DNA of 64,000 bases from the NCBI GenBank assembly GCA_964016885.1, contig OZ024761.1, forward strand, positions 19,840,001 through 19,904,000, given 5' to 3'. Source of the DNA: Eledone cirrhosa (Eukaryota). Positions within the stretch are counted from its first letter, which is position 1; the number at the start of each line of letters is the position of its first letter. The notes below the pieces were generated by a model. It was not told the origin of the DNA. It searched no databases and worked only from the letters and a program-made list of their open reading frames with translations. Shown here piece after piece: positions 629-36,060 of this stretch. A program made the position numbers and the translations under genes.

Positions 629-828
629 NNNNNNNNNNNNNNNNNNNNNNNNNNNNNNNNNNNNNNNNNNNNNNNNNNNNNNNNNNNNNNNNNNNNNNNN
701 NNNNNNNNNNNNNNNNNNNNNNNNNNNNNNNNNNNNNNNNNNNNNNNNNNNNNNNNNNNNNNNNNNNNNNNNNNNNNNNNNNNNNNNNNNNNNNNNNNNN
801 NNNNNNNNNNNNNNNNNNNNNNNNNNNN
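629..828. other. assembly gap (200 N)
   Basis: Run of N between a (GGT)n tract and a (TA)n array. Confidence 1.
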
Positions 829-6116
<5,288 letters not shown>

Positions 6117-6477
6117 CTCTGAAATATATATAATGAAATAAATATGGTTTTATAAATATAGTTTCCATTTATTTAATATCGTATATATATATATATATAT
6201 ATATATACACTCATATTCACACATACATATATGTACATATGCACACACATATATATATATATACACTCATACTCACACACATACATATACACACATATCA
6301 TCATCATCATCATCATCATCGTTTAACGTCCGTGTTCCACGCTTGCATGGGTTTGGACGGGGGTAGTCCCACTTGAGGCAAGAGTGATTGTCTTGCTCGC
6401 ATAGGACTGTCTGGCATATATATATATATATATATATATATACACTCATATTCACACACACACATATCATCATCATG

Positions 6478-9788: not shown

Positions 9789-10038
9789 TCGGGGGTAACC
9801 ACAGTAAGTAAGGTACTCAATACATTAGTAGAGTGTAAACATCAAATTTAATATAGAAATATCTTCTCCAGGACTAGAACTGTTTCATTCGAAGGAAATA
9901 ACCAAGAAAGCTTTCCTTATGATTTCCTTCGAATGAAACAGTTCTAGTCCTGTAGAAGACATTTCTATATTAAATTTGTTGTATATATATATATATATAT
10001 ACACACACACATATATATACATGTTTGTGTATATATAT

Positions 10039-12597: not shown

Positions 12598-12684
12598 TAT
12601 ATATATATATATATATATATATGATGTTTATATATATATATAATAGGGTACGTCAAAATTATTTATAAAACTGTTTATATATTG

Positions 12685-12749
12685 TATTTTGTCTGATGAA
12701 GGCATACCATATTTTAATTTGGTATCCCTGAAATATGTATAATGAAATA
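12685..12749 (+). ncRNA. type I hammerhead ribozyme motif (family B)
   Basis: TATTTTGT-CTGATGA-AGGCATACCA loop TGGTATCCCT-GAAA-TATGTA-TA-ATGAAATA; 8-bp stem I (two G.U), 10-bp stem II with one C.C mismatch; predicted cleavage after 12741. Confidence 0.75.
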
Positions 12750-13196
12750 AATATGGCATTCCTGAGATCATTAATCTCCAGCTGGCGATCCAGAGACATC
12801 TGATGTATGTAGGTGAACCTCAGTCATCCCACTTGGGTCTTACTATGTTTAGGTATCCACCACAGGAGCCAGCTCATCAGGTCATCCTACCCTCAGCAGC
12901 AATGTCCAGCATCTATTGACTTCCGCTCCCTAGTTATTGTGGTAATCTTCGATATCTGGGAATATATTTCTTCTGCTTAAGGGAGTAATAAATATATAGT
13001 TTTAAAAAAAACATATATATACACACACATATATATATGTTGTCATTTATAAGAGTTCTCTATCAAAAGCCTTCTCTATGTCCAAAGCTAAGTATAGTGG
13101 CTTATTTTGTAGTTGTCTCACTAAGAAGAGGGCATCTGTTGAACTTTTCAGCAGCACAAAAGCAAACTGCATCTCATACACATACATACATACATA

Positions 13197-13536
13197 CATC
13201 ATCATCATTTCGTTTTAAGTCCGCTTTTTCCCTGCTTGCAAGGGTGGGACGGGAACTGATTCTGGCTTGATTTCTACAGCTGGATGCCCTTCCTAACACC
13301 AACCTCATTTACAGTGAGTGCTGGGTGCTTTTTTGCCATGGCACCTCCACGACCACTTTGCAGTGGAATGATATGGACCCCAGTCCCTATCATCTCATTT
13401 CTACAGCTGAGTAAACTGGAGCAATGTGAAATAAAGTGTCTTGCTCAAGGAAACAACACATCACCCGGTCTGAGAATTGAACTCACAACCTTTCGATTGC
13501 CAGGCCAATGCTCTAACCACTAAGCCATGTGCCTCC
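13197..13536 (-). mobile_element. young tRNA-derived SINE (~340 bp), copy 1
   Basis: Head GGAGGCACATGGCTTAGTGGTTAGAGC (A-box) and GAGTTCAATTC (B-box), (TGA)n tail; near-identical to 14543, 42526 and 51260. Confidence 0.9.
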
Positions 13537-13582
13537 ATATACACATACATACATACATATATACACATACATACATACATAT

Positions 13583-14520
13583 ATGGCTTCTACAAGACTA
13601 AAACTCATTAATATGAGGGTTATATGCCATATTTAATACAGAAATTGGTTCTAAAGGACTAGAACTCTTTAATTCGAATCAAATAGTAGTATGTATGCGA
13701 TATTTAATACAGAAATGGCTTCTACAGGACAAAAACTCTATATAGAAATGGCTTCTAAAGGGCTAAAGCTCATTAATTTGAAGGAAATAGTACATTACAT
13801 GCCATATTTAACAATTCTATATTAAATATTGTGTATACTCTACTATTTCATTAAAATAAGACAGTTTCAGTCCTGTAGAAGCCATTTTTCTATTAAATAT
13901 TGTATATACAGTGCTATTACATTTGACAGACAGTTCTAGAACTGTAGATGTCACATCCATATCAAATATTGTACATACAGTACTATTTCTTTTGAATAAG
14001 ACATTTCTACTCCTGGAGAAGCCAATTCTAAACTATATATTGTATTTACAGTAGTATTTCTTTCGAATAAGACATTTCCAGACCTGCAGAAGCCAATACT
14101 ATATTAAATATTTTATATACTCTACTATTTCCTTCGAATCAGACAGTTCTATAGTTTTAGAAGCAATTTCTATATCAAATATTGTATATACTCTACTAAT
14201 TCACTTGAATGAGATAGTTCTAGTATTGCAGAAGCCAGTTCTATATTAAATACTGTATATACTCTACTATTTCCTTCGAATAAGACAGTTTTACATCTGT
14301 AGAAGCCATTTCTATATTACATATTGTATATATCCTACTATTTCCTTTGAATGAGACAGTGCTAGCCGTGTAGAAGCCATTTCTAAATTAAATATTGTAT
14401 ATACACTCCTATTTTTTCCAAATAAAACACTTTTAACCCTGTAGAAGCTAAGTCTAAATTAAATATTGTATATTCAGTACTATTTCTTTCAACTGAGACA
14501 TTTCTAGACCTGTAGAAGCC
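13583..14520. repeat. ~71-bp satellite (about 10 units on +, 3-4 inverted units at 13583-13810) derived from hammerhead family A
   Basis: Unit approx. ATACTCTACTATTTCCTTCGAATAAGACAGTTCTAGTCCTGTAGAAGCCATTTCTATATTAAATATTGTAT; GAAGCC recurs about every 70-71 bp from ~13878 to ~14515; homologous to 9915-9980. Confidence 0.85.
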
Positions 14521-14542
14521 AATAATGAATATATAATATCAT

Positions 14543-14872
14543 ATCATTTCATTTTACGCCCGCTTTTTCCCTGCTTGCAGGGGTGCGACGGGAACTGATT
14601 CTGGCTTGATTTCTACAGCTGGATGCCCTTCCTAACACCAACCTCATTTACAGTGAGTGCTGGGTGCTTTTTTGCCGTGGCACCTCCACGACCACTTTGC
14701 AGTGGAATGATAGGGACCCCAGTCCCTATCATCTCATTTCTACAGTTAAGTAAACTGGAGCAATGAGAAATAAAGTGTATTGCTCAAGGAAACAACACAT
14801 CACCTGGTCTGAGAATTGAACTCACGTTTCAATTGCAAGGCCAATGCTCTAACCACTAAGCCATGTGCCTCC
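14543..14872 (-). mobile_element. young tRNA-derived SINE, copy 2
   Basis: Near-identical to 13197-13536 with a small deletion just upstream of the B-box. Confidence 0.9.
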
Positions 14873-15225
14873 ATTTATATATATATATATATTAAATATA
14901 TATTATATATTATATCGTTTCTGAATTTATATAGCAAGGCTTTTATCTGGAAACGTGTGTTGAAACCAATATTGTTATGCTTTGGGAGGGTCATGTTGCC
15001 AATAAGAAACACACACACCAGTTGCTTTCAATTTATTATAAATTAAATTTATAAATTTCCGGTTGGTTCCATAACCGGACGGTTGTTCATATATTGTCAA
15101 AGTTCTTTCGTCACACATTGTGACCTCTTCAGTGACTAGGGATTCTTTTCTTTGTTTTGTGCCTCTCCTTTGTTCTGTCCTACGCCATCTTGTTTTTGTG
15201 TGTGTATATATATATATCTTATATG

Positions 15226-15260
<35 letters not shown>

Positions 15261-15359
15261 TTAGTTAAGCAGAACAAGACCACAAATTTCACAAGGAAGA
15301 CATTAAAAGATTGTCAACATATTTTAGTTTGATGTAAGGAATGTAGAGAATAATAATAA

Positions 15360-15484
15360 TGTCCGTTTACAATTGTTTCGCTACTCCATATATTTCTGGA
15401 TCAGATGACTATATATCATTATTGATCTGGTTCAGTTGAAAATAATTAACATATTTAAAAACAGAGCGGCTCATCGGAACTACA
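15360..15484 (-). ncRNA. hammerhead-like motif with long stem II and variant core (family C)
   Basis: Minus strand: TGTAGTT-CCGATGA-GCCGCTCTG...TGGAGTAGC-GAAA-CAATTG-TA-AACGGACA; palindromic stem III CAATTG, GUA site; core has U4C. Confidence 0.45.
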
Positions 15485-15739
15485 AAGGAATATAAATTAA
15501 AATGAGAGAATGTTACATAATGTAACGTTCCATATATTGGTATTTCACTATGGTGTCCTGGTTGTATCAGTTGTCAGCCATAATCAAGCAGTATTCATCT
15601 GTCGAGGCTGCATTGTGTGAGATCTGCCTATGGGTAATCAACATTGAGCACATGCCTTTACGCTTTGGCTTCTAACTAATTCACCAATCTCTCCTTTCAT
15701 ATCTCCATCTCTCTCTCTTTAAGATTGGTTACTCTTGAA

Positions 15740-17160
15740 CTGTGTATATATATACATGTATTATATATATATAACACATATATATAATACATATATATAT
15801 GTATTATATATATATAAATAATACATATAAGATATATATATATATATCTTATATGTATTATATATATCTTATAAGTATTATATATTATATTCAACACAAC
15901 TGAAATACAATTTACAGTTTTTATATATATATATATATATATATATAAATCTTATATGTATTATATATATAATACATATAAGATATATATATCTTATATG
16001 TATTATATATATATATCTTATATGTATTATTTATATAAGATATATGTATTATGTATATCTTATATGTATTATAACATATATATAATACATATATATATAT
16101 ATCATGTATTATATATATATATATATAAATAATACATAATGTATTATATATATATCTTATATGTATTATATATATATATAATACATATAAGATATATATA
16201 TGTATTATTTATATATATATATATATCTTATATGTATTATATATATATATAATACATATAAGATATATATATGTATTATTTATATATATATATATATATG
16301 TATTATTTATATATATATATATAATACATATATATATATATATAAATAATACATATATATATATATATAAATAATACATATATATATATACGTATTATAT
16401 ATATGTTATAAGTATTATATATTATATTCAACACAACTGAAATACAATTTAGTTTATACATATATATATAAATATCTCATATGTATTATATATATATCTT
16501 GGTGGATAGGCAGTATCGGTCGAGAGTCGGACACCATGCTTTGAAGCATAGTTACGTCCCTTTATGATCTGAGTTCAAATCCCGCCAAGGTTAACTTTGC
16601 CTTTCATCCTTACGGGGTCGATAAAATAAAGTACCATTAATGTACTGGATAATTGATGGCCTTGTGCCTAAAATAGAAACAATTATATATATATATAAAT
16701 ACATATATATATATTATATATATATATCTAAATAATACATATATCTTATAAGTATTATATTCAACAACTGAAATACAATTTACAGTTTATATATATATAT
16801 ATATCTTATATGTATTATATATATATATAATACATATATCTTATATATTATATGCAACACAACTGAAATACAATTTACAGTTTATATATATCTTATATGT
16901 ATTATATATATATATAATACATATCTTACATGTATTATATATATATACATCTTATATATATATATATAATACATACAAGATATATATATATATATTATAT
17001 AATACATATAAGATATAAACTGTAAATTGTATTTCAGTTGTGTTTAATATAATATATAATACTTATAAGATATATATAATACATATAAATATATATATTA
17101 TACATATGTGTATTATATATATAAGATATATATATAATACATATATATATTAACTACAGT
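15740..17160. repeat. AT-rich complex repeat with direct and inverted sub-repeats
   Basis: CAACTGAAATACAATTT(AC)AGTTT at ~15897, 16434, 16765 and 16860, inverted at ~17018-17040, within TATGTATTATATA/TAATACATATA motifs. Confidence 0.8.
16500..16685 (+). mobile_element. tRNA-derived SINE, second family (5'-truncated copies at ~45588-45690 and ~59593-59700)
   Basis: B-box GAGTTCAAATCC followed by GTTAACTTTGCCTTTCATCCTTACGGGGTCGATAAAATAAAGTACC and tail GGCCTTGTGCC..AGAAACAATTA, shared among copies. Confidence 0.8.
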
Positions 17161-17508
17161 TAAAAAATGTTCTCTGTATTTGTAATGAAATTTTCATCCC
17201 TTAAACCCACGCAATATACATTTAATATTGTCTTTTTAATCCATATAAGTAACTTTCGAAATAATTTTTGCACCAATTTTCGCAATTCCTCGGCAACGTG
17301 TTTGGTGTTTGATATAAGTAAATAAATAAAACAATTCCACCCCACACCTCCCTGTAATCTGAACAACAGATTACCATGGTGGTGGGAGGGGTTAATGTAA
17401 ACAAGGAGTAATATGTAATCGCTACACCGGTTTCATAATTATTATAGCACTAATATCGTTAATTGCTTTTGTTATGTATCTATCTATATATATATATATA
17501 TACATACA

Positions 17509-17854
17509 CAATGATATTAAATAAATGGAAACTATATTTATAAAACCACGTTTATTCTATTATATATATTTCAAGGGTACCAAAAAACTCTGTATTTTAT
17601 CTGATGAAAGCGTACCAGTGTTTTATAAATTTTGACATAGCCAAGGATAATCATACCTTATCAGTTGAATTTTCTTGGGTAGTCAAGAAAATTCAACTGA
17701 TAAGGTATGATTATCCTTGGCTATGTAAAAATTTATAAAACACTTTGTATTTTATCTGATGAAAGCGTACCAAAGTTTTTTGGTACCCTTGAAATATATA
17801 TAATAGAATAAATATGGTTTTATAAATATAGTTTCCATTTATTTAATATCATTG
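17509..17854. repeat. 346-bp near-perfect palindrome containing a family-B hammerhead
   Basis: Arms CAATGATATTAAATAAATGG.../...CCATTTATTTAATATCATTG; centre TTCTTG ggtagt CAAGAA at ~17672-17689. Confidence 0.9.
17748..17810 (+). ncRNA. type I hammerhead ribozyme motif (family B)
   Basis: TATTTTAT-CTGATGA-AAGCGTACCA loop TGGTACCCTT-GAAA-TATATA-TA-ATAGAATA; 8-bp stem I, palindromic TATATA stem III; predicted cleavage after 17802. Confidence 0.78.
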
Positions 17855-18504
17855 AATATTTACTCCAGAAAACTGTTGAGTTCTCTGAATCAGTTATAAA
17901 CATTTATATTTGTTGGATTTCCAACAAATTAAATATCCCTTCTACTTATATATGTTTGTGTTCGTAAGTGTGTGCTTGTTTGTGCATGTACGCACAATAT
18001 GTATACACATATATACGTATACAGCTGCTATTTCTAACATTTTACAGGATAAACAGGTCGTGTGGTTTAAGGGTTTTCGCTGCTATTTCTAGTATAAGGT
18101 AGCCATTTTGGTTGGGCGGCTGTTTGAACGTTCAACATGGTAGTGTCAGGTTAACGGTAGTACTGGCTGCGTGAGCTGGTTAGACGTTTGTTTTTTCAAA
18201 TAAGGGAAATAACTGCGTCGAGACCAATTTTTTCCTAGTTATTTGCCTTTCACCACAAAAATTATTAAACTTTAATATTTCCCTTAATAATGCACGTTTT
18301 TTAAATGAAATTTTGTAGCGATATGTATTAAAATGTGTAGATTGCAATTATTGAGATGAAATATATATTTATGGGAAATTTCTAAAACTGGAGTATATGT
18401 TTACAGGTAAATTTGGCTGCTACTTCTAGCATTTGCTAATAATTAAATATATGGTTGTGTGGAAATTGTTACTATTACTAGCATTTTCTAAGTCACCAAG
18501 ATAC

Positions 18505-18735: not shown

Positions 18736-19229
18736 ATTTAGGCAAACACAGAAAGCCAGGCTTCTCCTACATCACCCACCACACATTTCATTGCAACTCC
18801 AGCACTATCACCTTGCAGGGTGAACTGGGTGTATTTTTATCTTGGCATCAACATTAGGGAGGTCATACCAACATGGAATAGGTGGTATCAGGTGCTGATG
18901 GTTGCCAAAAATCTATCATGACTTTATGGAAGAACCTTGGATAAGTCATGTGCTAAACACCAACTTACTAAAGAGCAACTTATCAAATCCTTCCAAAATC
19001 TAGATTATTCTAAATTATAGGCAGTATTTTCTTAAATGTTTGGTAACAAAATGGCTAATATATATAAACAGTTTGGCCTATATCCTTATCTTTCTTCCTA
19101 AACAGTTTGTGCCACAATAAAAGACCCCAACCAGTTCTGGTGCAACGATCAAAACCAAACACGACTGACAAGGAACTTTTTCCGGTTTTTTTTTGGGTTT
19201 TTATGTTTTTTTTTTTCAAAATTTTGGTT

Positions 19230-22653
<3,424 letters not shown>

Positions 22654-22817
22654 TCAATCTTCATCATCAGCTTCGTGTAACCAGTTAAAGAAGGCAGCAA
22701 CCTGTTTCAAAGCAACACCTTTGCCAGGTGAACCTTCACTTTTCTCCCACTGGAAGTAGGCCTCATCTAATATTACATCTTCATCATACAATGTTTCAAA
22801 CATCATCCTTAGAACAT
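22654..22817 (-). CDS. EIF4G: eIF4G terminal coding exon (W2 domain C-terminus)
   Basis: VLRMMFETLYDEDVILDEAYFQWEKSEGSPGKGVALKQVAAFFNWLHEADDED*; CAG acceptor, TGA stop. Confidence 0.95.
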
Positions 22818-24602
22818 CTGTGTTGAGAAAAATATTTAAAGACAAAAGGAATGTATTAGAAAAAATACCAACTTCCAGTTAAAAACAAAATATTAAGTTT
22901 ATTAATTTACAGTCTACAATGATATGTGAGTATATCTGGTTAAGTTGGACTGGTTCAGACTTCTGCCTGCTACTGGTATAATGTAACCCAGTACAATCTG
23001 GTCGGTGACTAAACCACATTCCCTACAAGACCAGAAAGTGGCAGAGGTTAACCAGGAAGGGGTTCTTCCAACAAGAGTGAGAAGGCCCTGGATTGGATCT
23101 GATTTAGAGTAGGTACACCGCTTCCCAGTGTTGTAAGAAGCCATTGAAAGGGTTTGCACTGGGAAAGGCATCTAGTCATAAAATGCTGCATTAACTTTTG
23201 ATAAAAATTTACCCAAAACTAGCTCTAGTTCTATAAAAGAAAACCACCCATATTAAAGGGTTCCTATTTAAATCAAAATCTTCCAACATAATTTTATATA
23301 AGGACCATATGCGAAGTTGCTATCTTAGCAGTAATGAGATCATTATCCTCATCTGCTTTCCCTGCCAGTTGTCACAGCAAATCTGTACTTAAATCAGAGC
23401 CACTGATCTTTTAGATGGGCTGAGATCTCATTTTCCTTACACACATTCCTACATTCTACAAAGTGTGTCATGCATTTTATCATGGCACCAACACTACCAC
23501 TTTAGAGAGTGTATTGTGTTTTATCATGGCACCAACACTACCACTTTAGAGTGTATTGTGTGTTTTATCATGGCACCAACACTACCACTTTAGAGACTGT
23601 ATTGTGTGTTTTATCATGGCACCAACACTACCACTTTAGAGAGTGTATTGTGTGTTTTATCATGGCACCAACGCTACCACTTTAGAGACTGTATTGTGTT
23701 TTATCATGGCACCAACACTACCACTTTAGAGTGTATTGTGTTTTATCATGGCACCAACACTACCACAACCCAGTTCAGGAATCAAACCCATGACATTATG
23801 ATCCCAAGTTCAACACCCTAACTACTAGGCCATATAACTTTACAAGTGAGACAGATCTTGGGGTGAGATTGAGAGAGCTGAGAACTAGATTGGAACTTAC
23901 TTTGTGGGTGCTCCAGTTTAAGGTCTAGAGCTTGCAGTGAAAAGAGAGCCTCTAACTGCAGGTTAGGCTTTTGGCAAAGATATTTTTGCAAGACTTCACA
24001 TCTTGTTTTTATTATAGACTGCGAAACTTTACGTTCTGAAATATTGAAGACAAAAAATATATCAACCATAAAAGTTCAAAAAACAAACATACACAGACAC
24101 AAAAGAGAAACCCACACACACATCAATGTTTAACGTCTATCTTCCACGCTAGCATGGGTTAGACGGGTTTGTCCTACTTGAAGCAAGTTGGGTCAGGTGA
24201 TCATGTATGTCTCGCTCGTATAGGACTGTTTCACACACAAACTCAAACATGCACACACTAGAGACAGACACACACACACACGTTTATTTAGTGACATAAA
24301 TCAGTAATATCTCTCCTTACCAACAATTGCACTTGAGCAAATTTCAGTCATAAGAATTCTAATGAATGCCTCCGTCTCTGTAAGAGATTGCTGAAGTTCC
24401 TGGACATGAAAATATATTAAAAAAAAAACGAGAATTAAAGAAGAGGGGAAATGTTAAATAAAACCAACTATAATATACATACATGGTCCCGTAACTCATG
24501 AGAGAATCGTAGGGTCACTGTATTGACAGTGTTTCTAGGGCATTTTAAAACCTAGTGGAGCACATCTCTCCAGGTCTGAATACAGCAGATTTCTTCCAGA
24601 GA

Positions 24603-24650
<48 letters not shown>

Positions 24651-27600
24651 GTGAGGAAGAATCGACCCCAGTACTTGAGGAATACTGAATTTATGTTAAA
24701 TACTCGACAACCTAATTGAAAAAAAAAAGGTGACATTTTCATTAGCACAGGTGTTCCTAAAAACAGGTGTGATTTATAGTTCTTAATATAACTCACCTCA
24801 ATAAGATCAAAAATAGGTTTGTTATTCAAATTGCAGGTTTTAAGCAATTCGTGCAACTTATTCTCAAAATCAATTAACAAGTAGTCAGGATTATCTTTGT
24901 CGAACATGAAATCCAATTTCTAAAATAAAAAGCAAAAATACATTATTTTACGATATATATATATATCTATATATATACATACTTACATACATACATACAT
25001 ACATACATAGTTTGTAAGGGTGGTTGGTGACAGTAAGGGCACCCTGCTGTAGAAACCACGCCTAAGAGCTGAGAAGACCCTTTAGTTGTGTCAAAGACAT
25101 GACAACCTCCCTAGTGTTGGTGATCTACATGATAAACACACCCAGTACACACTGTAAATTGGTTGGTGATAGGAAGGGCATCCATCTGTAGAAAACTTAC
25201 CAAAACAAGGGGTTGAGAAAACCCTTCAGTGTATATCAAAAGACATGACAACTTCTCTACACTCAATATGACCGTATGTTAAGCAGGGTACAGATCCTTC
25301 GGTCTGTCTGGGTGGACTGGGTACTTTTTATCATGGCACTAATACTACCACCTTACAAGGTAGACAGGATGCTTTTTGTTGTGGCACCAACCCCACCACC
25401 TGACAGAGTGGACTGGGTATTATTTTATTATGTCACTCACCACCACTACTACAAAATCTGTTGAAAGCTTACAGGAAAATGTTTTACTTACATGGTCTGA
25501 TATAAACTCAGACATTTTTTCAGTCTTGTAGAAATCAGAGAGCTTCAAGTCAAATGATTCCCAGAGTTCTCGCACTTTATTTTCACCCTAAAAACAATGA
25601 TTTAATAAAGTGTAATTAATACAAAGCATTGTGGGATATGTAGTAAAAGACTGCTAATGACTTAATACAAGTAATTAGATAGATTTCTTTATTAGCCACA
25701 AGGGCGCAACAAGAAAAGGGGACAATACAAAGACATGCCGGGGATTTTACATAGTCATGTAAAAAATATAAAAAACAATTTCAACAATCGAAATCCCCAA
25801 TAGGGGGGAGGCGCCACAAATGGGTTGTTTAATACCCCGTCGATAGAACAACCCTCAACTCCAGGAGCGTGTTGTGCAAGTGCTCCTTTCTTCCTTTTGC
25901 TCTCTTCCTCAAGTAATTAGATAAACACAGCAATATAAATTTGGCAATTACATAATCCAGCAGTTCAGATCTCTAAAAATTAAGATATTTTTATGTCCAT
26001 TTGCCTTCAGAATGATTTTTCTTTGAGCATCCGGCTTACAACAGGTATGCCACATCTCCCAGTGTCACAACAGGCATGCCACATCTCCCAGTGTCACAAC
26101 AGGCATGCCACATCTCCCAGAATCACAACAGGCATGCCACATCTCCCAGTGTCACAACAGGCATGCCATATCCCTCAGTGTCACAACAGGCATGCCATAT
26201 CCCCCAGTGTCACAACAGGTATGCCATATTCCCCAGTAGCACCAGGTAGAGCATCCTTCAAAAGGTATCCCATCATCACATGCTGTGTATGAAGCCTATG
26301 TGGGAGCAGGGCTTTCAAGTTTAGCCCTTGTTTCAGCAGGGGAAGGATTACATGATTATGAAGCCTATCATAGAGCCCACAGTGCTAACTCCTGCTTTAG
26401 AAACTAAAATTGGAGCAACGTGAAATAAAGTGTCTTATTCAAGGACACAACACACCACTAAGCCATGCGCCCTCACAATATACCAATTAATGAAATAGAT
26501 GGGATCTATATCATCAGAGGATCCTATTTTCACACACACAAACACTCACATAAATACAAACACATATTGGTTGGTTGTTACCATTTGAGTGACAAGTTCT
26601 TTGAGTATTTCAGCAATGAAAACACCTCCTTTATTCGTAGCCTTTAAGGCCTCAGCCATCTCTTTTAAAATTGTCCATTGTAGCCTTCCCTCGCCCAGCA
26701 AGGAAGAAATTAATTGAGCAAAATATGTCCAAATTCTTGGTACATCTATCTCCAAATCTTCAGCATATTCCAAAACATCATTCATGCTACAATGAGAAGG
26801 AAACCGTGAGAAGAAAAAAGAGGAACAAAAACAAAACAGAAAATTTGAAACTCTATTGTCAGTAGAGTGGCAACAGTAACAAAGGATCAATGTAGCGTAA
26901 CGTGTGTGTAAAAGGTAAATAGAAATAACACAATCAGTACAGTATATGGAAGGAATATATTAGTGTAATGCTTGAAATAGCAGGAAGAGGGTCTTAACGT
27001 TTCAGATGCAAATCCTTCATCGGTGTGTAAGGACCCCTGACTCATAGAACACTTGGCAAACAAAGGGTAAAGAGGATTGTACAGTTATGTGAAAGGTATG
27101 ATAACTTCTCTATTGCTGGTGCCATGATTGCCAAGTGCTTCTTGTAGAACACCGAACAAAAGGACAAAGCAACACACACACACACACAATAGTTACTTAC
27201 CCATTTAAGAAATCTGATTTAGAAATTGTTTTATTATCGACGAGATGATAAATTAGGGAGCCTGTCAGTGTTCTAGCTGGTTGTGTTAAATCAAGTACGT
27301 GACTGATAGCTGATGATATGAACACTTGGATATTTCTTGAGGATTTAAACTTAAAGAGAGATACCATCACTTCCTGAAATGGAAAAAATATACATAGTCA
27401 ATATTATAAAAATATTTCTAATGAAAGATATTATTTATGATTTTCAAATACTTTTGGAAATAAACAAGAATTTAGAAATATATAAATAACTTTCTCATTA
27501 TTAAACTAGTGTTTGGAATGTAACAACCATTTCAAATGAAAGACACTGCCAATGATTTCAAACCATTAAAAAAATAATCCAGAATTTGGAGGGATCTAGT

Positions 27601-28365
27601 AATATTACTGACGTTCTTGTTAGTAAATTGGTGTTTGGAACATAAAATTATGATAGATTTTTTTTTTTATAGATATATATAAACACCTTAAAACAAACAT
27701 AGAACCAGGGGTAGCTTCAGAATCTTGTGTATGTGTATATTTACATTGACATTGCTTAACCTGTGTCTGTTGAAGTCTCGTAAATTCACAGACAAATTGA
27801 TTGATATGAATCAACTAAAACTCTTGTGCCCCAGCAATGACCGCAATTAAATGGCTGAAACCAGCAACCAATACAAGAACATACACAGAACAAAATGAAG
27901 TGTTTACCTCAAGATCTTTGTTATTTAAGTAACCATCAACAATAAAGATTGTCTTCTTCTTCACTTCAGCCTCACTGATGGGTTTACACTGGGCTGCAGC
28001 CAATTCTATTTTCTCTTGCTTTGTGGGGTAGTCCGAAGTAGAATTGCTGGCGTCATAATTTAAAGGTTTGCTGTCTTGGAACATTCCATTTTCACAACTA
28101 GCCATCTTTGAATCCCGGGAGTTTTCCCTCGAATGAAGCACAGACTGACGATTCTGACTGCTCTCTCGACTTCCAATTGGAGTGTGCATACTGCGATTTC
28201 TGCTATTTTCTCGACTGCGGATCTTTCGAGACCGACTGTCCTCACGAGTCTGTCCTCTTAAAGGAGTGAGATTATCACTAGAAATATAAAATTTATATTT
28301 TGTATTGTACTATCAACGACAATATGCATTGTATGTTATTTTGTGTGTGTGTGTATATGTATGTG

Positions 28366-28399
<34 letters not shown>

Positions 28400-31300
28400 A
28401 TATAAGTATATTGTTATACTTTGGGAAGATCATGCTACCAATAAAAACACACACCTGTTGGTTATCACTTCAATCTATTATAAACTATTTCTACATATAA
28501 GCTGAACATTTATCTAATTATATACTAGAAATAAATTATTAAAATATCATTCTTATCTTTGATTACTTCCACATGTCAGTAATCAACATATTATAGGGTT
28601 TCTCATATGCAAGCCATATACACTCATTACATTTACCACACAGTATTATCCTACTACATATCCTTATTTACTAAGCTTGAGTGTCTAGTTTATAGTAGGT
28701 AGGCCATAACCCTGCAAGTTGTAAGAAGTGACTAAAAGGGTTGGTATCATTCAACGTAAAAACATTACCTCAAATACCATTCAACCCATGCCAGGCTGAG
28801 TTGGGTCCCTACATTTCACTTACATATGACCATGCATTCTATTGAGTATATTTTATCATAGCATCAGTACTAGAGAGGCTGTCATGTATTTGACACAGCT
28901 TATGAGTTCTCCCAACCCTTTGTTTAGCAAATTTTCTAAGGTTGGATGCCCTTCCTATCAGCAGACCACCACACCACCAATCCAAGACAAAGTACATAGC
29001 TACTTACTTTGAGCCACGTCTCTGAACATTCTTATCTTCTTGCGAAAATCTGCGATGCATTGCCTTTCCACGAAAACCACTTAACTGATTCCGACCAGAC
29101 TGAGCAGGAGAAGGTCCTGCACCAGAACGAGATCCACTTCGGCGATTACCCATGCCTGCACGTCCAAACATCTCTGGCCTGTTCTCCTGACCACTACTCC
29201 CCATCATATTAAACAAATCCTCCTCGTCACCACACAAAGCCGAGAACCTGAAACGACAGTTAAAAAACATAGAACATTTGTTAAATTTATCTTTCAAATA
29301 CTTAATCCAGAGTTTCTTTTATATCCCATGAAATCATCATGAAAATAAATCTCCAAGATGCATGACAGGGCAAGTATTTTGGGAGAAGACCAACAGTTGC
29401 TCATGCATGCAAGTCTCCCTTTTCGATGCCACCCGAGAGAGCTGGAAACAAATACCACAAATCATTCTATCTGACGTTCTAACGACTGCCAATTACCCGG
29501 CTAAATCAAAAGTAGCAATAATTACCTATTAGCTGGTGTTGAAAGTCTTTCATTCTGTTGATTACTTGAACCACGATTGCTGCTGCTGCCTCCTCCCGTA
29601 CTACCACGTGCCCACATACTGAATTTGTTAGAACCGACATTTGGACACAACTGTATATTGTCATCATTCTTGTTCTGTAACACACAAATAAAAAACAATA
29701 AATCATCATCCTCATCACCGTTTAATGTCTATTTATCATTCTTGTATGGGTTAGATAGGTTGTCACATTTTGAGGTTAGTCTAGGGAAAATATCTTGCTC
29801 ATATATTCCATATTGGGCTTCATTTCTACGGCTCGATGCCCTTCGCCAACCACATTGATAGCATGGACTGGGTGCTTTTTGTCATGTCATCAACACGACC
29901 ACCTTACAGGGTGGACTGGATGCTTTTTGTCGTGTCACAATATTTACATACACCCTCACTCACTCATCACCACCACCACCTCCACCTACCAAATAAATAA
30001 TTTCTAATATTGGCACAAGATGAAGAATGAGATGAACGGAGGAAAGGTGTGCTGAAAAACACCCATGGAAAAGTGGACATAAAATGATAAGGATAAAGAA
30101 AAAAGAAGAGAGGAAATAATTTGGTGTTACGAGATATATTTGTACCTTAGGTAACCACATTTTAGTATGGTCAATTGGCGCTCTAAGAGCTCGTCCTCCT
30201 CCAACTGTATTCCAGCCCTCACTGTCGTTAGCCTGTGGTGGTGTGGGAGGTCCCATAGAGCCAGCACGCCCACTTCGGTTACGTTGAGAAGGAAAGGACA
30301 GCTGTGTGGCAGCAGCTGCATCCATCTTCTGTCGGTGTTCAATTTCCTCGTTCTCTATGTCCTGGTGAAGTTCTTTCAAGGTCTTTGGGCCCTTCTCTGC
30401 ACGCCGTGGAACCCATTTGTTTTTGCGCAGATCAATAAGATCCAAGAGCATAAACCGAATGCGCGAGGATGTTTCCCGACCTCCAACAATTGCTTTAATG
30501 TCTTTGAAGTAACGATTCATTTCCTCATTCTGAAACGACAACCAAGAAAATAAAGACCAACATATATCACAATAATAGTTTAGAATTTAGGTACGCAGCC
30601 TAATGGTTAGAGTGTTGGGCTCATGCCTATCGCCGACTAATGTCTATTTTCCATGCATGGGTTTGATGTCATGTTTTGAGGTTAGACAGGTCAGATGATT
30701 GTGTCTTGTTCAGCTTGCGTTCCATTCTGCTATGGTTCCTACAGCTGGATACCATTCATAACATTAATCATCTTACAACATATTTAGTTGCTTTAACGGC
30801 TGTTCTAGTGTTCAAATACACTCACTTCGTCTCGATTTTAGACAACATTGTTTTAACCCTTTAGCATTCACATTGAATTGTCAAATGTCATGTTCATCTA
30901 TTCGCATTATTTTCACTTAATTATACTCAAGAGGGTTATCAATTTTATTTGTTTGTAATTACTTTAATTTTCTATGTGCAGACTTGAAATTTTGTCAGTT
31001 GATGTTTAAATAACTATAATTTACAATTATATATTTTTACCTGATTTTTTTTTGTTAAATTTGACTTTTATGGGCAGGTGAAATTAATTAACAGATGTAA
31101 AAGTAATAACTTTATGGATAAACACAGAAATTTAAACTTTATCTGCCTTATCTGTTAGATTTGTTGCAAAAAAATCCAATAATGACCTAGATGCTGATTT
31201 CCATCAATTCTAGCAGTTTTCCGAACAGGTGAATTAATTAAAAATGCAGGTGTAATCAGTACACGGTTTTAGTCTTTCTCTACATTCCAGGCAAATATTT

Positions 31301-33485
31301 TCATTGAAAAAAATGTATAAAACCTTTTCACCGGTCAAAATAATATTGGCAATGTACTCTGTAAATGTACGGTGTAAAATTACGTAACAGAAAGTTCCCA
31401 ATATATAAGTTTATACACACTTTTAAATTTTTCTGACAATATTTCAATTAATGGTCGTACTTTGTACAGTGGGTCGTAATTTGATTCATTTCTACCAGGG
31501 GCATTTGAAGTATCAACCAGATGCAAATACTGGTTTAATTTAATGAATCTCGTTTTTGCCATAATACTAGAAGATATATAAGGGTACCAAACCTTATATC
31601 AGTACTCCAATAATTCCACAGTCGTGGAAATTGTTTAATACCAAACATAATATTTAGGGTAAAAAACGCTTTCATTTCGGCAGAACCTGCCGGACGCCAT
31701 AACAGATCGGGTTTTCCGATATTAGAAATTTGTTGTTGTGCATAGCGATTTGCCACAACTTCGAAGAAAGATTGTGGTAAAAATAAAAAATAAAATCCAG
31801 TACTTTAGCATCGGGTGGTAATGTGTGTTGTGGTCCAATATTTTCAGTAAAATCCGAAACATGTATCGATGTTTCTTTCAACCACGTTGCTGTTTTTTCA
31901 ATGGTGTCAGTCAAATCTCTTTCAAAGTAACTATCATCATTATCAGATATATCAGAAATAAATATATCTGATTCGTTTGAAGATAAATCACTGATATTAT
32001 CTTCTGTTTCTTTTTGATCTCGAATGTCGTCGGACGTAAAACCTTCAAATTCGTTGTCGCTACTTTCGGAAGCCATGTTACACTTTCAACGTTAAAAACA
32101 CGTGTTATCGCAAGTTCTTTAACTATACTAAGAGTTAATTTTCGCGTGTAAGGGCTTTATCTCGCAGTAATCTCGAATTGACGAGATTTCGATGATGTCA
32201 ATGTTTATTTTTAGAAGGAAATCTCCGTGTGGTATTAAATGTCGGTTTTTGTCGCTTTGAATGCTAAAGGGTTAATTATATATATGAATACAAAAGATAG
32301 AAGATGAAGAAGACAAGTCTGTATATTTACCTTTGCTTTACTTTCTATCACTTTCCCAACCGTAGATATCAATTTACACATACATTCCAATTTCTCTTCA
32401 TCTGTAGAAGATGATAATCTTTCCAGACAACCGTGCATTATATCTAATTTTACCATGTTCATTTTAAACAATTCTCCAATAAACCTAAAAAGAAAGAAAA
32501 TATTATTATTGTACAGAATTTTAAATAAGAGGTAATATAAAATTTTATCTCCACCAAAAATGAAATCATCATCATTATCATCATAATTTAACATCTGTTT
32601 TCCCAACTAGCGAGAGTTTTAGATAAATATTATTTTGTATATATGGTAGTCATTCATGCTCAGTGTGAATCTTACCTAATATTTCCAACTGATTTACGTC
32701 TAGATATAAACATAATTGTGTCAAGTTCCTCTAATAAAATCTTCTTTTCCTCTTCCTGAAAAATGGAATAGATCAAATTTAAGACATGTTAACAAACAAA
32801 AGATACAGCTATAAAACTTCATATTTCAAAAATATATGACATTTATTGTAAGTATACAAAATGTAAGTTGACCTTAGAAAACATAATAGAGAGGTTATCT
32901 CAGTTCAGTGACAGAAATTTCATATTTGAAAAATAAGAGGACAAATTTGAGGAGTCAACATTAGAAAAGGGTGTTGATGAGGACAGCAAAGAAAAATCTT
33001 GATCCAGCTAAAGAAATTTTCTGACCTTACTAGAGCCAGTGTTGTGATCGTGTTAGATACAACATAATTACAGTATACGAGGGGATGCTGAAAAGTTCCT
33101 GGTTTTAAAGGTATTTAAGAAGCCTGGTTGGAGGCCAAACTTTCCGAGTTCTTTTTACAGGGATTAGAAAAACTGACGAAGTGCTGCAATAAGTGTGTAA
33201 AACAGAGGGGTATATGTTGAATAAAATCATAATTAACTGATCATCCTGTATTTTCTTTTACTCAAAGCGAGGAACTTTTCAGCACTGCCTCGTATAATCT
33301 AATATAAGCTGACACCCATTTACAAACCGAGGCAACTAATCAACACAGATTGTGTATATAAACCAATCTCCATTTTTACCAATGTTTTGGTCACATATTC
33401 CTTGGCTTATATTCCAGAATATACGGTATGTTTGCCTCAGTCCCATCCCAAATTCCCAAGGGATTAGCAGTAAATACAAGATAGA

Positions 33486-33517
<32 letters not shown>

Positions 33518-36060
33518 TCTCAACTTACATTTGCTGCTTCAATTTTTACTTTCAAATCTAGAATCTTCTGTTCACTTTCGTTATCCTTTTCAAATTCTTC
33601 CTTGCATTTATTTAATAGCAAGCTATGGAAGTTGACATTCTTGTCAGGATTATTTTTGGAAGGCACTTTCAACTGTAAGTCAAAGAAAAAAAACACAAAT
33701 GATAGCCAACAGCTCCAAAATGGAAATCTCAAAATCGGTTTGAACAGAAAGATGTGAGAGAGTTCTGGCCAGTTACAGCCAGTTTGAACAAAAAGAGGTG
33801 AGAAAATTCTAGCCGGTTACAGCTGGTTTGAACAGCAAGAGGTGAGAGAAGTCAGGTAGGTTTAAATGCTAAAGGGTTAAAGGAGATACTCACCAACATT
33901 AAAAATGTACAGAATTTGGCATAAGCTGAACTGTAATTTGGCTCCAAAACAGCCTGCAATTAGAAAACATTTTCAACAGTTATTAGGATCAATGCATTAC
34001 ATTTTCAAATGTATGTGGATAAATCATTCAAGTTTATCGGTAGAACATGGGGCCGTATGTAAGGGAGATGCAGACCCTAGGATTGTCTGGGAGGTCAGTA
34101 GCCTCATATGTAAGGGAGATGCAGACCCTAGGATTGTCTGGGAGGTCAGTAGGCCCATATATAAGGGAGATGCAGACCCTAGGATTGTCTGGGAGGTCAG
34201 TAGCCCCATATGTAAGGGATATGCAGACCTTAGGATTGTCTGGGAGGTCAGTAGCCCCATATGTAAGGGAGAGGCAGACCAATGTTTGTGTGTGTGTGCA
34301 TAAATTTTGAAGAGTTCCACATGAAGATATATAGAAATACAGAAACACATGTGGCACATTATTATTATGGTTGATAAGACAATATACACACCTTTTCAAA
34401 GACAAGGTCCGTTACTGCGACAAGTTTGTCTTCGGTGTCAATAAGAATTAACTCCATCTGGTCTACTAATGTGTCAAAATTCTGTGGAGTGAGTTTATTT
34501 AATATACTTCGAACCCGTTTCACCACAGCATCAACACCAGTATCATCGGGTGGAGCATGTGGCTTCTTCGCGGAAGGTAACCAGGCATTCTCGCACGTCT
34601 TTAACTTCCCCTCTTTTGGAATCTGAATTATAATATTTTTCACATCTTTCTTCCCCTGTTGACTCCCTCTTTTCGTAACACCCACAGACTGAAATAAACA
34701 ATATTTTTCCTTTTAATATTTTTTTTTAAATCAGTAAACAGACAAACAAACAAATGAAAATGTCAAATAAGAACTACGGGGATAGGCTGACTATGAAGGA
34801 ATGATGCTAGAAGGATGAAGTAAAGTAGGCCTCGGTGGAATTTGGAAGAAGGATTTCTACATTAAGGAATGAGGCCAGCAATCTAGTTGATTAAATTAAC
34901 CACAGGTGACAGGTACTTTATTTTATCTCAAATGTTTCAATAATGCAAAGAGAAAAAAAAAACAAAAAAACAACTGCTACTTACCGAACGTGTAGTCTTG
35001 ACGTAGAATGGAATAAAGGGGTCATTACCATTCCTCCAATCTGCATTGATACCTTTGTCACCTGGCAGACCCCCAATAGTCATAGCACTGCTTGGTAGAC
35101 CAATTCCAGGGGCATTAGAAGTCAGGGGCTAAGAAATCATAACAGATAAAACAAATTTTACATTACTCTATATTTACTATTGCATTTTCATGGTAAAGGC
35201 TTTACCTCGCATAATAAATTTACAAGATTTTGATGTTATTTATTTTGAAAACAATACCTTAATGTAGATATGAGCGGCCAGTTATGGCTGGTTTGAACAG
35301 AAAGAGGGTGAAAGTTCTGGCCAGTTATGGCTGGTAAAGGGTTAAAATGTAAAACAAATCATATCAAGAACAATGAAGATAGTTGAAAATGTGAGAGTCC
35401 CAAGTGTAGAAAATAACTATCTGAGCTGATCTCTGCTTCAACCAGAAATGATTTGAGTTGATCCTTAAAGTGTTACTTAGATGCAGCACAAGAATAGGTG
35501 TGTCGTAAAAAGCAACTAAAAGGGTTGGTGTCGAAAAACTTGCATTCAACTGTAAAACTTCCTTGAATCAAATGAGATGGTTGGGTCATGTGTGGATGAA
35601 GGATGAAAGTGACTGGGTGAGAAGAATGGAGCCAGTGGTGAATGTCGTGAAGAGAAATGGAATGAGATGGTTGGGTCATGTGTTGAAGGAAAAGACAAAA
35701 AAAAAGACATGACTAAAGATGGAGGAGGAAATGAAAGCCAGTTTGGAGAGGATGGGATGGGGTGGGGGCTATTTTGCAGATAATAGGAGCCTGTCATGGG
35801 GTAAGGATACCCCTTCTTACTGCTGGTGTAGTGTAGTTGTTATCAAAGTATTTCTAGCAGTCTCCCACATTTTCAAAATTGCCAAATTTTCAGCCAAACT
35901 TCAATAAAAAAGGGAGTTATACTTACTGCAGACAAAATAACATCAGGTAAATCTGGAAGGTTTTCAGGTCTGCTCAGGGAGGCAGAAACATTTTGCAATC
36001 CCAAGAGCGTATCTCTGTCATATTGCTTTAAGTCTTGAGGGTTTGTGTTGTTCCATTGCT
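22654..36060 (-). CDS. EIF4G: eukaryotic translation initiation factor 4 gamma (eIF4G1/3-like), 18 coding exons, 5'-incomplete, ~1,040 aa
   Basis: Exons 5'->3': 36060-35927, 35128-34985, 34688-34392, 33953-33894, 33672-33529, 32755-32676, 32484-32331, 30529-30146, 29674-29526, 29247-29008, 28277-27908, 27373-27201, 26786-26582, 25587-25492, 24919-24797, 24399-24321, 24035-23901, 22817-22654. All GT-AG, phases agree, no internal stops. Motifs: YDRDTLL, VRSILNKLTPQNF, GNIRFIGELFK, SSRIRFMLLDLIDLR..WVPRR, GKGVALKQVAAFFNWL. Confidence 0.95.
23470..23765. repeat. ~40-43-bp minisatellite x7 from a SINE internal segment
   Basis: Unit TGTATTGTGTTTTATCATGGCACCAACACTACCACTTTAGAG. Confidence 0.9.
23901..24035 (-). 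CDS. EIF4G: eIF4G exon (W2)
   Basis: RKVSQSIIKTRCEVLQKYLCQKPNLQLEALFSLQALDLKLEHPQ; CAG/GTAAGT; phase 1-1. Confidence 0.93.
24321..24399 (-). CDS. EIF4G: eIF4G exon (W2)
   Basis: ELQQSLTETEAFIRILMTEICSSAIV; CAG/GTAAGG; phase 0-1; a second in-frame CAG lies 9 nt downstream. Confidence 0.88.
24797..24919 (-). CDS. EIF4G: eIF4G exon (linker/start of W2)
   Basis: KLDFMFDKDNPDYLLIDFENKLHELLKTCNLNNKPIFDLIE; TAG/GTGAGT; phase 0-0. Confidence 0.88.
25492..25587 (-). CDS. EIF4G: eIF4G exon (end of MA3 region)
   Basis: GENKVRELWESFDLKLSDFYKTEKMSEFISDH; TAG/GTAAGT; phase 0-0. Confidence 0.9.
26038..26236. repeat. 29-bp minisatellite x7
   Basis: Unit ACAACAGGCATGCCACATCTCCCAGTGTC. Confidence 0.92.
26582..26786 (-). 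CDS. EIF4G: eIF4G exon (MA3)
   Basis: MNDVLEYAEDLEIDVPRIWTYFAQLISSLL...EILKELVTQM; TAG/GTAACA; phase 2-0. Confidence 0.93.
26988..27037 (-). ncRNA. minimal hammerhead-like motif, variant core (family D), sense within an eIF4G intron
   Basis: Minus strand GGGGTCCTTACACA-CCGATGA-AGGA tttgca TCT-GAAA-CGT-TA-AGACCC; bulged stem I GGGTC/GACCC; AACGTT palindrome; U4C. Confidence 0.4.
27201..27373 (-). CDS. EIF4G: eIF4G exon (MA3)
   Basis: EVMVSLFKFKSSRNIQVFISSAISHVLDLTQPARTLTGSLIYHLVDNKTISKSDFLNG; CAG/GTAAGT; phase 0-2. Confidence 0.9.
27908..28277 (-). CDS. EIF4G: eIF4G exon (RS-rich linker and start of MA3)
   Basis: DNLTPLRGQTREDSRSRKIRSRENSR...SEAEVKKKTIFIVDGYLNNKDLE; TAG/GTAAAC; phase 2-0. 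Confidence 0.9.
29008..29247 (-). CDS. EIF4G: eIF4G exon (linker, NRFSAL motif)
   Basis: FSALCGDEEDLFNMMGSSGQENRPEMFGR...VQRRGS; CAG/GTAAGT; phase 2-2. Confidence 0.9.
29526..29674 (-). CDS. EIF4G: eIF4G exon (linker)
   Basis: NKNDDNIQLCPNVGSNKFSMWARGSTGGGSSSNRGSSNQQNERLSTPANR (QL.P and W..GS.GG motifs); CAG/GTAATA; phase 0-2. Confidence 0.9.
30146..30529 (-). CDS. EIF4G: eIF4G exon (end of MIF4G)
   Basis: NEEMNRYFKDIKAIVGGRETSSRIRFMLLDLIDLRKNKWVPRRAEKGPKTLKELH...EGWNTV...MWLPK; CAG acceptor, weaker AAG/GTACAA donor; phase 0-0. Confidence 0.92.
30857..32271 (-). mobile_element. internally deleted piggyBac DNA transposon (1,415 bp) in an eIF4G intron
   Basis: TTAA|CCCTTTAGCATTCA ... TGAATGCTAAAGGG|TTAA: perfect 14-bp TIR with TTAA on both sides; transposase remnant inside. 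Confidence 0.93.
31380..32076 (-). pseudogene. piggyBac (PGBD4-like) transposase N-terminal remnant, frameshifted and truncated
   Basis: Three overlapping ORFs: acidic N-terminus + FTENIGPQHTLPPDAKVLDF; NRYAQQ..EMKAFF.LNIMFGI...YWSTD; M.KTRF....YLHL.D...YDPLYKVRPLIE.L...F..VY; breaks off at ELSV, just before the first catalytic Asp. Confidence 0.88.
32331..32484 (-). CDS. EIF4G: eIF4G exon (MIF4G)
   Basis: FIGELFKMNMVKLDIMHGCLERLSSSTDEEKLECMCKLISTVGKVIESKAK; TAG/GTAAAT; phase 2-0. Confidence 0.95.
32676..32755 (-). CDS. EIF4G: eIF4G exon (MIF4G)
   Basis: EEEKKILLEELDTIMFISRRKSVGNIR; CAG/GTAAGA; phase 0-2. Confidence 0.92.
33078..33292. mobile_element. mariner-type MITE
   Basis: TA|CGAGGGGATGCTGAAAAGTTCCT ... 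AGGAACTTTTCAGCACTGCCTCG|TA. Confidence 0.82.
33529..33672 (-). CDS. EIF4G: eIF4G exon (MIF4G)
   Basis: LKVPSKNNPDKNVNFHSLLLNKCKEEFEKDNESEQKILDLKVKIEAAN; CAG/GTAAGT; phase 0-0. Confidence 0.93.
33894..33953 (-). CDS. EIF4G: eIF4G exon (MIF4G)
   Basis: AVLEPNYSSAYAKFCTFLML; CAG/GTGAGT; phase 0-0. Confidence 0.93.
34050..34280. repeat. 51-bp minisatellite x~4.4
   Basis: Unit ATGTAAGGGAGATGCAGACCCTAGGATTGTCTGGGAGGTCAGTAGCCCCAT. Confidence 0.95.
34392..34688 (-). CDS. EIF4G: eIF4G exon (start of MIF4G)
   Basis: SVGVTKRGSQQGKK...KLKTCENAWLP...VKRVRSILNKLTPQNFDTLVDQM...DLVFEK; CAG/GTGTGT; phase 0-0. Confidence 0.95.
34985..35128 (-). CDS. EIF4G: eIF4G exon (linker)
   Basis: PLTSNAPGIGLPSSAMTIGGLPGDKGINADWRNGNDPFIPFYVKTTRS; TAG/GTAAGT; 144 nt, phase 0-0. 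Confidence 0.85.
35927..36060 (-). CDS. EIF4G: eIF4G exon with the eIF4E-binding motif
   Basis: QWNNTNPQDLKQYDRDTLLGLQNVSASLSRPENLPDLPDVILSA, aligning with the vertebrate QWKP...YDREFLLGFQ...KPEGLP.I.DVVL segment; CAG/GTAAGT; phase 1-0. Confidence 0.93.

Follow-up and report, generated by a model that had tools for sequence, protein, structure and literature searches.

Hammerhead motifs of a very abundant Penelope-like element family in Eledone cirrhosa

A 64,000-nucleotide stretch of the Eledone cirrhosa genome (contig OZ024761.1, forward-strand positions 19,840,001 to 19,904,000; hereafter the window, numbered from its first letter) carries two motifs that are type I hammerhead folds. It is highly probable that they are the pseudo-long terminal repeat (pLTR) hammerheads of 5'-truncated copies of a Penelope-like element (PLE) with Hydra-clade motifs; the hammerhead likely cuts the RNA of its own element, weakly and conditionally, and does not serve the host. 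The family is new, very abundant and of a known kind, the hammerhead-bearing PLE, and its sequences indicate that it is probably active; our literature searches found no published description of it. A preliminary description of this stretch had recognized type I hammerheads of the PLE kind whose stem III is palindromic and whose structure is under selection, and had judged the genome to be cephalopod-like; our data support each of these points. It had also treated them as an RNA family of their own; they are neither that nor a retrozyme, both copies being truncated 3' ends of a PLE that is Hydra-clade by its motifs, with the coding partner elsewhere in the genome.

Hammerhead folds and element copies in the window

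The two hammerheads, each identified by direct reading, by a descriptor match and in an alignment of genomic copies (A1, described below), are:

12685..12749, plus strand: hammerhead 1, with G-C and A-U at two covarying sites of stem II
17748..17810, plus strand: hammerhead 2, with A-U and G-C at the same two sites

In hammerhead 1, stem I joins 12685-12692 to 12742-12749 through eight pairs, two of them G·U. The core occupies 12693-12699 (CTGATGA) and 12730-12732 (GAA), stem II 12700-12709/12720-12729, and ATATGTAT lies at 12733-12740, with the predicted cut 3' of A12741. The corresponding parts of hammerhead 2 are stem I at 17748-17755/17803-17810, a core at 17756-17762, stem II at 17763-17772/17781-17790 and ATATATAT at 17794-17801, with the predicted cut 3' of A17802. 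Both have the type I hammerhead core: CUGANGA, GAAA and UH at the cut. Direct reading reproduces the coordinates, stems and cut sites first proposed and, base for base, the two double substitutions and the retained C·C mismatch in stem II. A descriptor scan of the window gave three matches, and stems as long as those of hammerheads 1 and 2 appeared in none of 100 dinucleotide shuffles of 6101-64000, so the two are not chance occurrences. CTGANGA by itself is not enriched in the window (26 observed vs 18.75 ± 4.2).

The hammerheads lie in the following remnants of the element, together with two smaller fragments:

12638..12760, plus strand: copy 1, a 5'-truncated lineage-1 PLE remnant, 98.4% identical over 123 nt to genomic locus L067
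17674..17947, plus strand: direct arm of copy 2, a 5'-truncated lineage-2 PLE end with a long 3' end (~140 nt past the cut), 95% identical over 269 nt to locus L031
17509..17673, minus strand: inverted arm of copy 2, ending at a short 3' end (~50 nt past the cut), identified from sequence and as inverted repeat I9
17590..17617, plus strand: 28-nt micro-inversion within the inverted arm of copy 2, identified from sequence
6114..6189, plus strand: lineage-1 fragment truncated within stem II, with only GAAA, stem III, cut site and short 3' end, embedded in (TA)n
47525-47577, minus strand: tail-only lineage-1 fragment (long 3' end), followed by (TA)n

Copy 1 has (TA)n upstream; it lacks the last ~35 nt of a normal 3' end, where its relatives continue, and runs into unrelated sequence instead. 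Copy 2 belongs to an inverted insertion of 440 bp (17509-17947) that had previously been overlooked; it forms one arm, and the other arm holds a third, broken hammerhead copy. The micro-inversion disrupts this minus-strand hammerhead and appears as an additional CTGATGA at 17601. The L031 stretch matching the direct arm is the 3' end of a copy bearing an open reading frame (ORF), and TA-rich sequence follows the arm. The 3' half noted earlier at ~6118-6180 is present as the fragment 6114..6189, which is not a ribozyme on its own because it has no CTGANGA. A palindromic miniature inverted-repeat transposable element, inserted in the hammerhead with a 29-bp target duplication, was considered and ruled out, as related loci are an ordinary inverted PLE copy plus the micro-inversion.

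Copies 1 and 2 belong to sister lineages and are separate insertions 5 kb apart; the preliminary description had raised cleavage as a dimer, and nothing suggests that these two act together. Copy 1 has a counterpart on another contig, with 100% identity over 98 nt (43 matches listed from 40 scored of 195 candidates). The hammerhead of copy 2 is 100% identical over 109 nt in 19 of the 46 genomic matches listed, the window's own included (from 40 scored of 436 candidates). Such full identity to copies elsewhere, 18 of them for copy 2, marks the window copies as young. Among the genomic relatives, the flanks reveal 5' truncation to differing extents, 5' copies in inverted orientation and terminal (TA)n. 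A tblastn search of the 64 kb with the parent protein introduced below was empty, in agreement with the earlier statement that the window holds no coding partner.

Several other features of the window were recorded. Between copies 1 and 2, the minus strand carries a further hammerhead, from an unrelated family, at 15090-15141 (core 15132), with a 6-bp stem II and a 4-bp stem I; its pattern has 19,456 matches genome-wide and none in the control. A near-perfect long hairpin at 9854-9967 probably represents a different mobile element, since related sequence occurs at two further loci (L006 and L010); a 71-bp tandem array spans 13857-14566. From ~630 to 6110, a gap of 200 N is followed by ~5 kb of (TA)n-type microsatellite, in which long open frames are artefacts. 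A whole-window Rfam scan gave only weak repeat or hairpin matches, among 150 of 269 listed; a MIR169_2 match at 17625-17736 was rejected as a microRNA, being the palindromic junction of copy 2. An eIF4G-like gene with MIF4G and MA3 exons runs on the minus strand from ~19200 to 34700 and beyond. A contig from run X4 (run kind unrecorded) is spliced over its introns, with CT..AC gaps between 22817 and 26581, and the low cover of that run below ~19.2 kb hints weakly at an mRNA end ~1.3 kb short of copy 2.

Parent elements and abundance of the family

Elsewhere in the genome, the full-length parent has the order hammerhead, 5' leader, 737-amino-acid ORF encoding a reverse transcriptase (RT) with a GIY-YIG endonuclease (EN), 3' untranslated region of 1.1-1.6 kb, and hammerhead. 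Long copies traced upstream led at L031 to an RT-EN ORF ~1.1 kb upstream of a type-2 hammerhead, and an ORF 64% identical to it lies upstream of a type-1 hammerhead at L065. Among the 20 loci fetched around the best protein matches, five have the complete ORF and five (L100, L113, L114, L115 and L117) a clean hammerhead on each side of it; the search for adjacent RT/GIY-YIG ORFs that had been suggested from the window thus found its answer at other loci. The ORFs of L112, L113 and L115, on two contigs, show no difference over 2,211 nt, and those of L114 and L117 differ by 1 and 13. This three-way identity suggests that the family is currently or was recently active. Three 5' ends are intact, and in these the ATG follows the predicted cut at a distance of 187-199 nt, so cleavage would spare the whole ORF.

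The proteins P0001 and P0002 are each encoded by a single ORF with RT and C-terminal GIY-YIG, as in EN-containing PLEs; their YRDD and VVY...YVG motifs match, by eye, the rows of figure S7 of PMC8557442. P0002 carries RWR, DKT, YRDD, CxCx5C, CxxC..E and N..CxH, that is, the Hydra-clade set with RWR instead of RWK, and each motif recurs in 67-119 of 120 homologs. The further hallmarks of EN-containing PLEs, pLTRs with a hammerhead, 5' truncation and an inverted 5' copy, are also present. On these features the family is a PLE with Hydra-clade motifs. Its nearest named protein relative, from Argonauta, is 39% identical, which fits an octopod, as does the AT-rich composition of the DNA, and a PDB sequence search with the parent protein was empty.

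According to Craig et al. (2021, PMC8557442), members of the Hydra clade carry canonical hammerheads. Shared with the Eledone family are the C-terminal GIY-YIG, DKT, RW[K/R], the CxCx5C linker, CxxC/CxH around a conserved E and N, (TA)n insertion, and a hammerhead with palindromic stem III near the 3' end. The same source lists Hydra-1_Obim from Octopus bimaculoides; when its supplementary rows for hammerhead and protein are compared by eye with ours, they are unlike throughout. It is given there as 2.5 kb with 'no pLTR', whereas the Eledone family has units of 3.4-4.0 kb with pLTRs and is present in tens of thousands of copies, its stems I and II measuring 8 and 10 bp. For O. vulgaris, 31 recently active Penelope-like families are described (PMC13282606); the words Hydra, hammerhead and ribozyme do not occur in the main text of that paper, and its supplement may hold a relative.

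An exact pattern spanning both core halves matched 34,304 times genome-wide and never in a reversed control, a density of 11.5 matches per Mb in a 3.0-Gb genome; Cervera and de la Peña (2014, PMC4209133) give ~9,000 for Xenopus and 4,000 for Latimeria. Within 5 kb of one another, the first 100 matches form 19 divergent inverted pairs and four same-strand pairs at least 881 bp apart. As inverted pairs count twice, insertions should be about a fifth fewer than matches. No same-strand neighbour closer than 881 bp was found among these 100 exact matches; two diverged short-range neighbours occur among 23 loci. The family is not a short tandem retrozyme array.

Other PLE-related sequences came to light in these loci. 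Beside Hydra-type ORFs (L118:400 and L119:116) lies a hammerhead of yet another family, the third, whose stem II is short and whose stem III is palindromic. At L105 (~720-3200) an ORF of lineage 2 is preceded by a hammerhead of lineage 1, which would make this a nested insertion or an inter-lineage chimera. Further PLE ORFs near insertions (L068, L016, L019 and L032) are more distant Hydra-type sequences, L068 being 46% identical to P0001; the L032 ORF we take to be Neptune-like.

Covariation and selection on the fold

Alignment A1 comprises 61 sampled copies and the two window copies, in 49 distinct rows; seven of 70 sampled loci (inverted partners) were dropped, and L158 (deleted arm) and L176 (truncated) were left out of A1. 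Where the search pattern left the core free, counts made by eye show it conserved: CTGANGA is kept in 96 of the first 100 matches, the four changes all being different, and GAAA in 95, the exceptions all being singletons. The N7 position takes all four bases (T46, A8, C6 and G3 of 63). In stem II, three pairs of A1 change on both sides (columns 21:49, 24:46 and 25:45). Cells changed on both sides number 48, compared with 17.3 ± 6.8 in shuffles (0/500), and pairing is 94.6%, compared with 37-56% in slid controls. Covariation of stem II is real.

The genome-wide counts are in line with this. In one sequence background the second pair of stem II is G-C in 3,318 copies, G·U in 1,687, A-U in 606 and A·C in 34, where 380 A·C would be expected if the two sides were independent; the counts are of copies, not events. 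A tree built from flanks only, with few columns and many open forks, nests the series G-C, G·U, A-U within lineage 1 and gives a second origin of A-U. Changes in stem I keep pairing, a G-C variant occurring in seven of the 100. Because the sampling pattern itself prescribed most of stems I and III, their invariance in A1 is uninformative. We infer that the copies under selection for the fold were the transposing masters and that the window copies are passengers.

A number of observations weigh against the reading given here, whether as an active fold or as a Hydra-clade element. The event-like measures of covariation do not exceed the shuffles: covarying pairs number 3 (3.8 in shuffles, 456/500) and pair types 13 (15.6, 500/500). 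This points to few independent events behind the signal, and no more than about five independent double changes can be made out. The pair adjoining the core is A-U in 37, G·U in six and unpaired in six of the 49 distinct rows, in place of G10.1-C11.1. The youngest subfamily has A·C beside the core and a G·A mismatch in stem II, and a shifted register could yield G-C there. RNAalifold favours a helix in which GAAA is covered by pairing with the 5' strand, and in the youngest subfamily this helix is the minimum-energy fold (-8.7 vs -4.2 kcal/mol). For neither window monomer is the hammerhead the predicted minimum-energy fold, and folds with stem I come to within 0.1 and 1.1 kcal/mol of the minimum in the two. 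The Rfam check proposed earlier came out negative, targeted scans with the hammerhead families giving no match to either copy up to E 10, and Pfam had no match for the parent protein. The hammerhead-to-hammerhead unit of 3.4-4.0 kb exceeds the 'generally <3 kb' of the Hydra clade, and assignment to that clade is by motifs. Several Hydra-clade hammerheads in supplement S2 of PMC8557442 likewise have no G-C beside the core.

The motifs also resemble the minimal PLE hammerheads described in PMC4209133, which are type I with a long stem II and an unstable palindromic stem III, occur mostly as single motifs on truncated PLEs with inverted neighbours, and have low activity and dimer dependence. Unlike these, the Eledone motifs have a longer stem I and no conserved G10.1-C11.1 in the covariation-supported register.

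Insertion ends, proposed mechanism and alternatives

The 3' ends of 63 copies fall into 34 short (~50 nt past the predicted cut), 25 long (~140 nt) and four unclassed. None of the 63 ends at the predicted cut itself, so the RNA that was copied must have been uncut or re-ligated at the hammerhead. Short ends have TATA within 10 nt downstream in 32 of 34 cases, consistent with the (TA)n insertion of the Hydra clade. In inverted pairs, one end is long and the other short in 30 of 35 (p ~1e-5; 29 of 33 without two cross-insertion pairs), five of 40 pairs having been left out with one end unclassed; copy 2 of the window is such a pair. This is the tail described earlier on one of two inverted pLTRs (PMC3846280 and PMC8557442), with two 3' ends, one per arm, and a tail of ~90 nt in place of 30-40 nt.

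The closest parallel is the Poseidon element of Anolis carolinensis (PAc; Frangieh et al. 2024, PMC11167929), which was shown in vitro to have two internal RT starts, a protein-assisted but dispensable hammerhead, and uncut RNA as template. Both systems have two defined 3' ends past the hammerhead, an AT-rich target and a template that retains the hammerhead. They differ in that PAc has a tail of 30-40 nt, a cut 26 nt inside the ORF and RT starts 111-118 nt into it, whereas in the Eledone family the ATG comes only after the predicted cut and both ends.

Based on the above data, we propose that reverse transcription starts at two internal sites (+50 and +140) on RNA that is uncut or re-ligated at that hammerhead, and that it would mostly halt early, leaving short ends like the window copies. 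Inverted insertions with one long and one short end could be produced if the nicked target had its two ends resolved on the two start sites, by twin priming or cDNA fold-back. Stem III has a 2-nt loop and is unstable within one molecule, as is usual for metazoan and PLE hammerheads. As a self-complementary 8-mer, it has a predicted intermolecular duplex of -3.2 or -2.2 kcal/mol. Cutting would accordingly need a helper, since stem III cannot close in one molecule but is self-complementary. There is about an even chance that the trigger is a second hammerhead; the element's own protein is a somewhat less probable candidate. Cutting would release an RNA with the whole ORF from an upstream co-transcript. 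Weak, conditional self-cleavage of the element RNA is likely on this model, of which we infer every catalytic step.

The full-length unit might instead replicate through a ribozyme-made 4-kb circular RNA, which we think unlikely. The two hammerheads of a full-length copy would pair through the palindromic stem III and excise the ORF-bearing unit; with RT starting just downstream of the cut, the unit would be copyable only once circularized, and a copying round would yield the pLTR, the helix over GAAA keeping the circle off. An uncut read-through template accounts equally well for the anatomy, and comparison of 5' and 3' pLTRs leaves circle and template-jump models unseparated, young copies being identical to one another.

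That the fold was retained in the element RNA to bind a protein or to position the RT, cleaving rarely or never in vivo, is a more serious competitor, although we consider it rather improbable. It would account for the lack of insertions ending at the cut, the non-canonical closing pair and the competing inactive helix, and it fits both the poor cleavage in vitro of metazoan PLE hammerheads (PMC4209133) and the Anolis Poseidon results (PMC11167929), in which core mutants leave insertion in vitro unaffected and no reads end at the cut. Against it, conservation tracks the catalytic consensus: six core bases are fixed across subfamilies, N7 is free, and GAAA and UH are kept.

Spread of the short copies as a non-autonomous retrozyme-type family, through small circular RNAs from short tandem repeats, is very improbable. 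The full-length element is matched for 80 nt or less upstream of the hammerhead in 12 of 23 sampled copies, a same-strand copy lies 305-355 nt upstream in two of the 23 (just 84-88% identical), and a preprint (10.64898/2026.07.22.740005) derives animal retrozymes from PLE pLTRs. Yet the first 100 matches contain no short tandem array and far more divergent inverted than same-strand pairs, 5' ends lie from 28 to >1,300 nt upstream and reach into the coding element, and the parents encode an RT-EN. Metazoan non-LTR retrozymes (PMC7229834) share the high copy number of type I hammerheads (~5,000 in mussel, up to 120,000 in axolotl) and are non-coding tandem repeats of 150-450 bp, whereas the Eledone family is coding, dispersed and mostly single or inverted. 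We give least credence to host co-option of both copies to process or regulate the neighbouring eIF4G transcript. The gene is nearby on the minus strand and copy 2 would fold as a long hairpin in any read-through RNA, but the intact hammerheads are on the opposite strand and the minus-strand one is broken, the copies are young with identical copies elsewhere, and at the genome-wide density some matches near a gene are expected.

We therefore retain the reading of the window motifs as pLTR hammerheads of truncated PLE copies. It leaves the known picture unchanged, hammerheads at PLE ends being expected. At its first description the Hydra clade had few families outside cnidarians; the present family shows that it can reach very high copy numbers in a cephalopod, with many of the insertions being perfect hairpins. 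The predicted cut spares the ORF, unlike that of the one PLE tested in vitro. This family could help to address the role of hammerheads in PLEs, as it offers intact, apparently active two-ribozyme elements, a series of stem variants (G-C, G·U and A-U) and tens of thousands of insertion ends.

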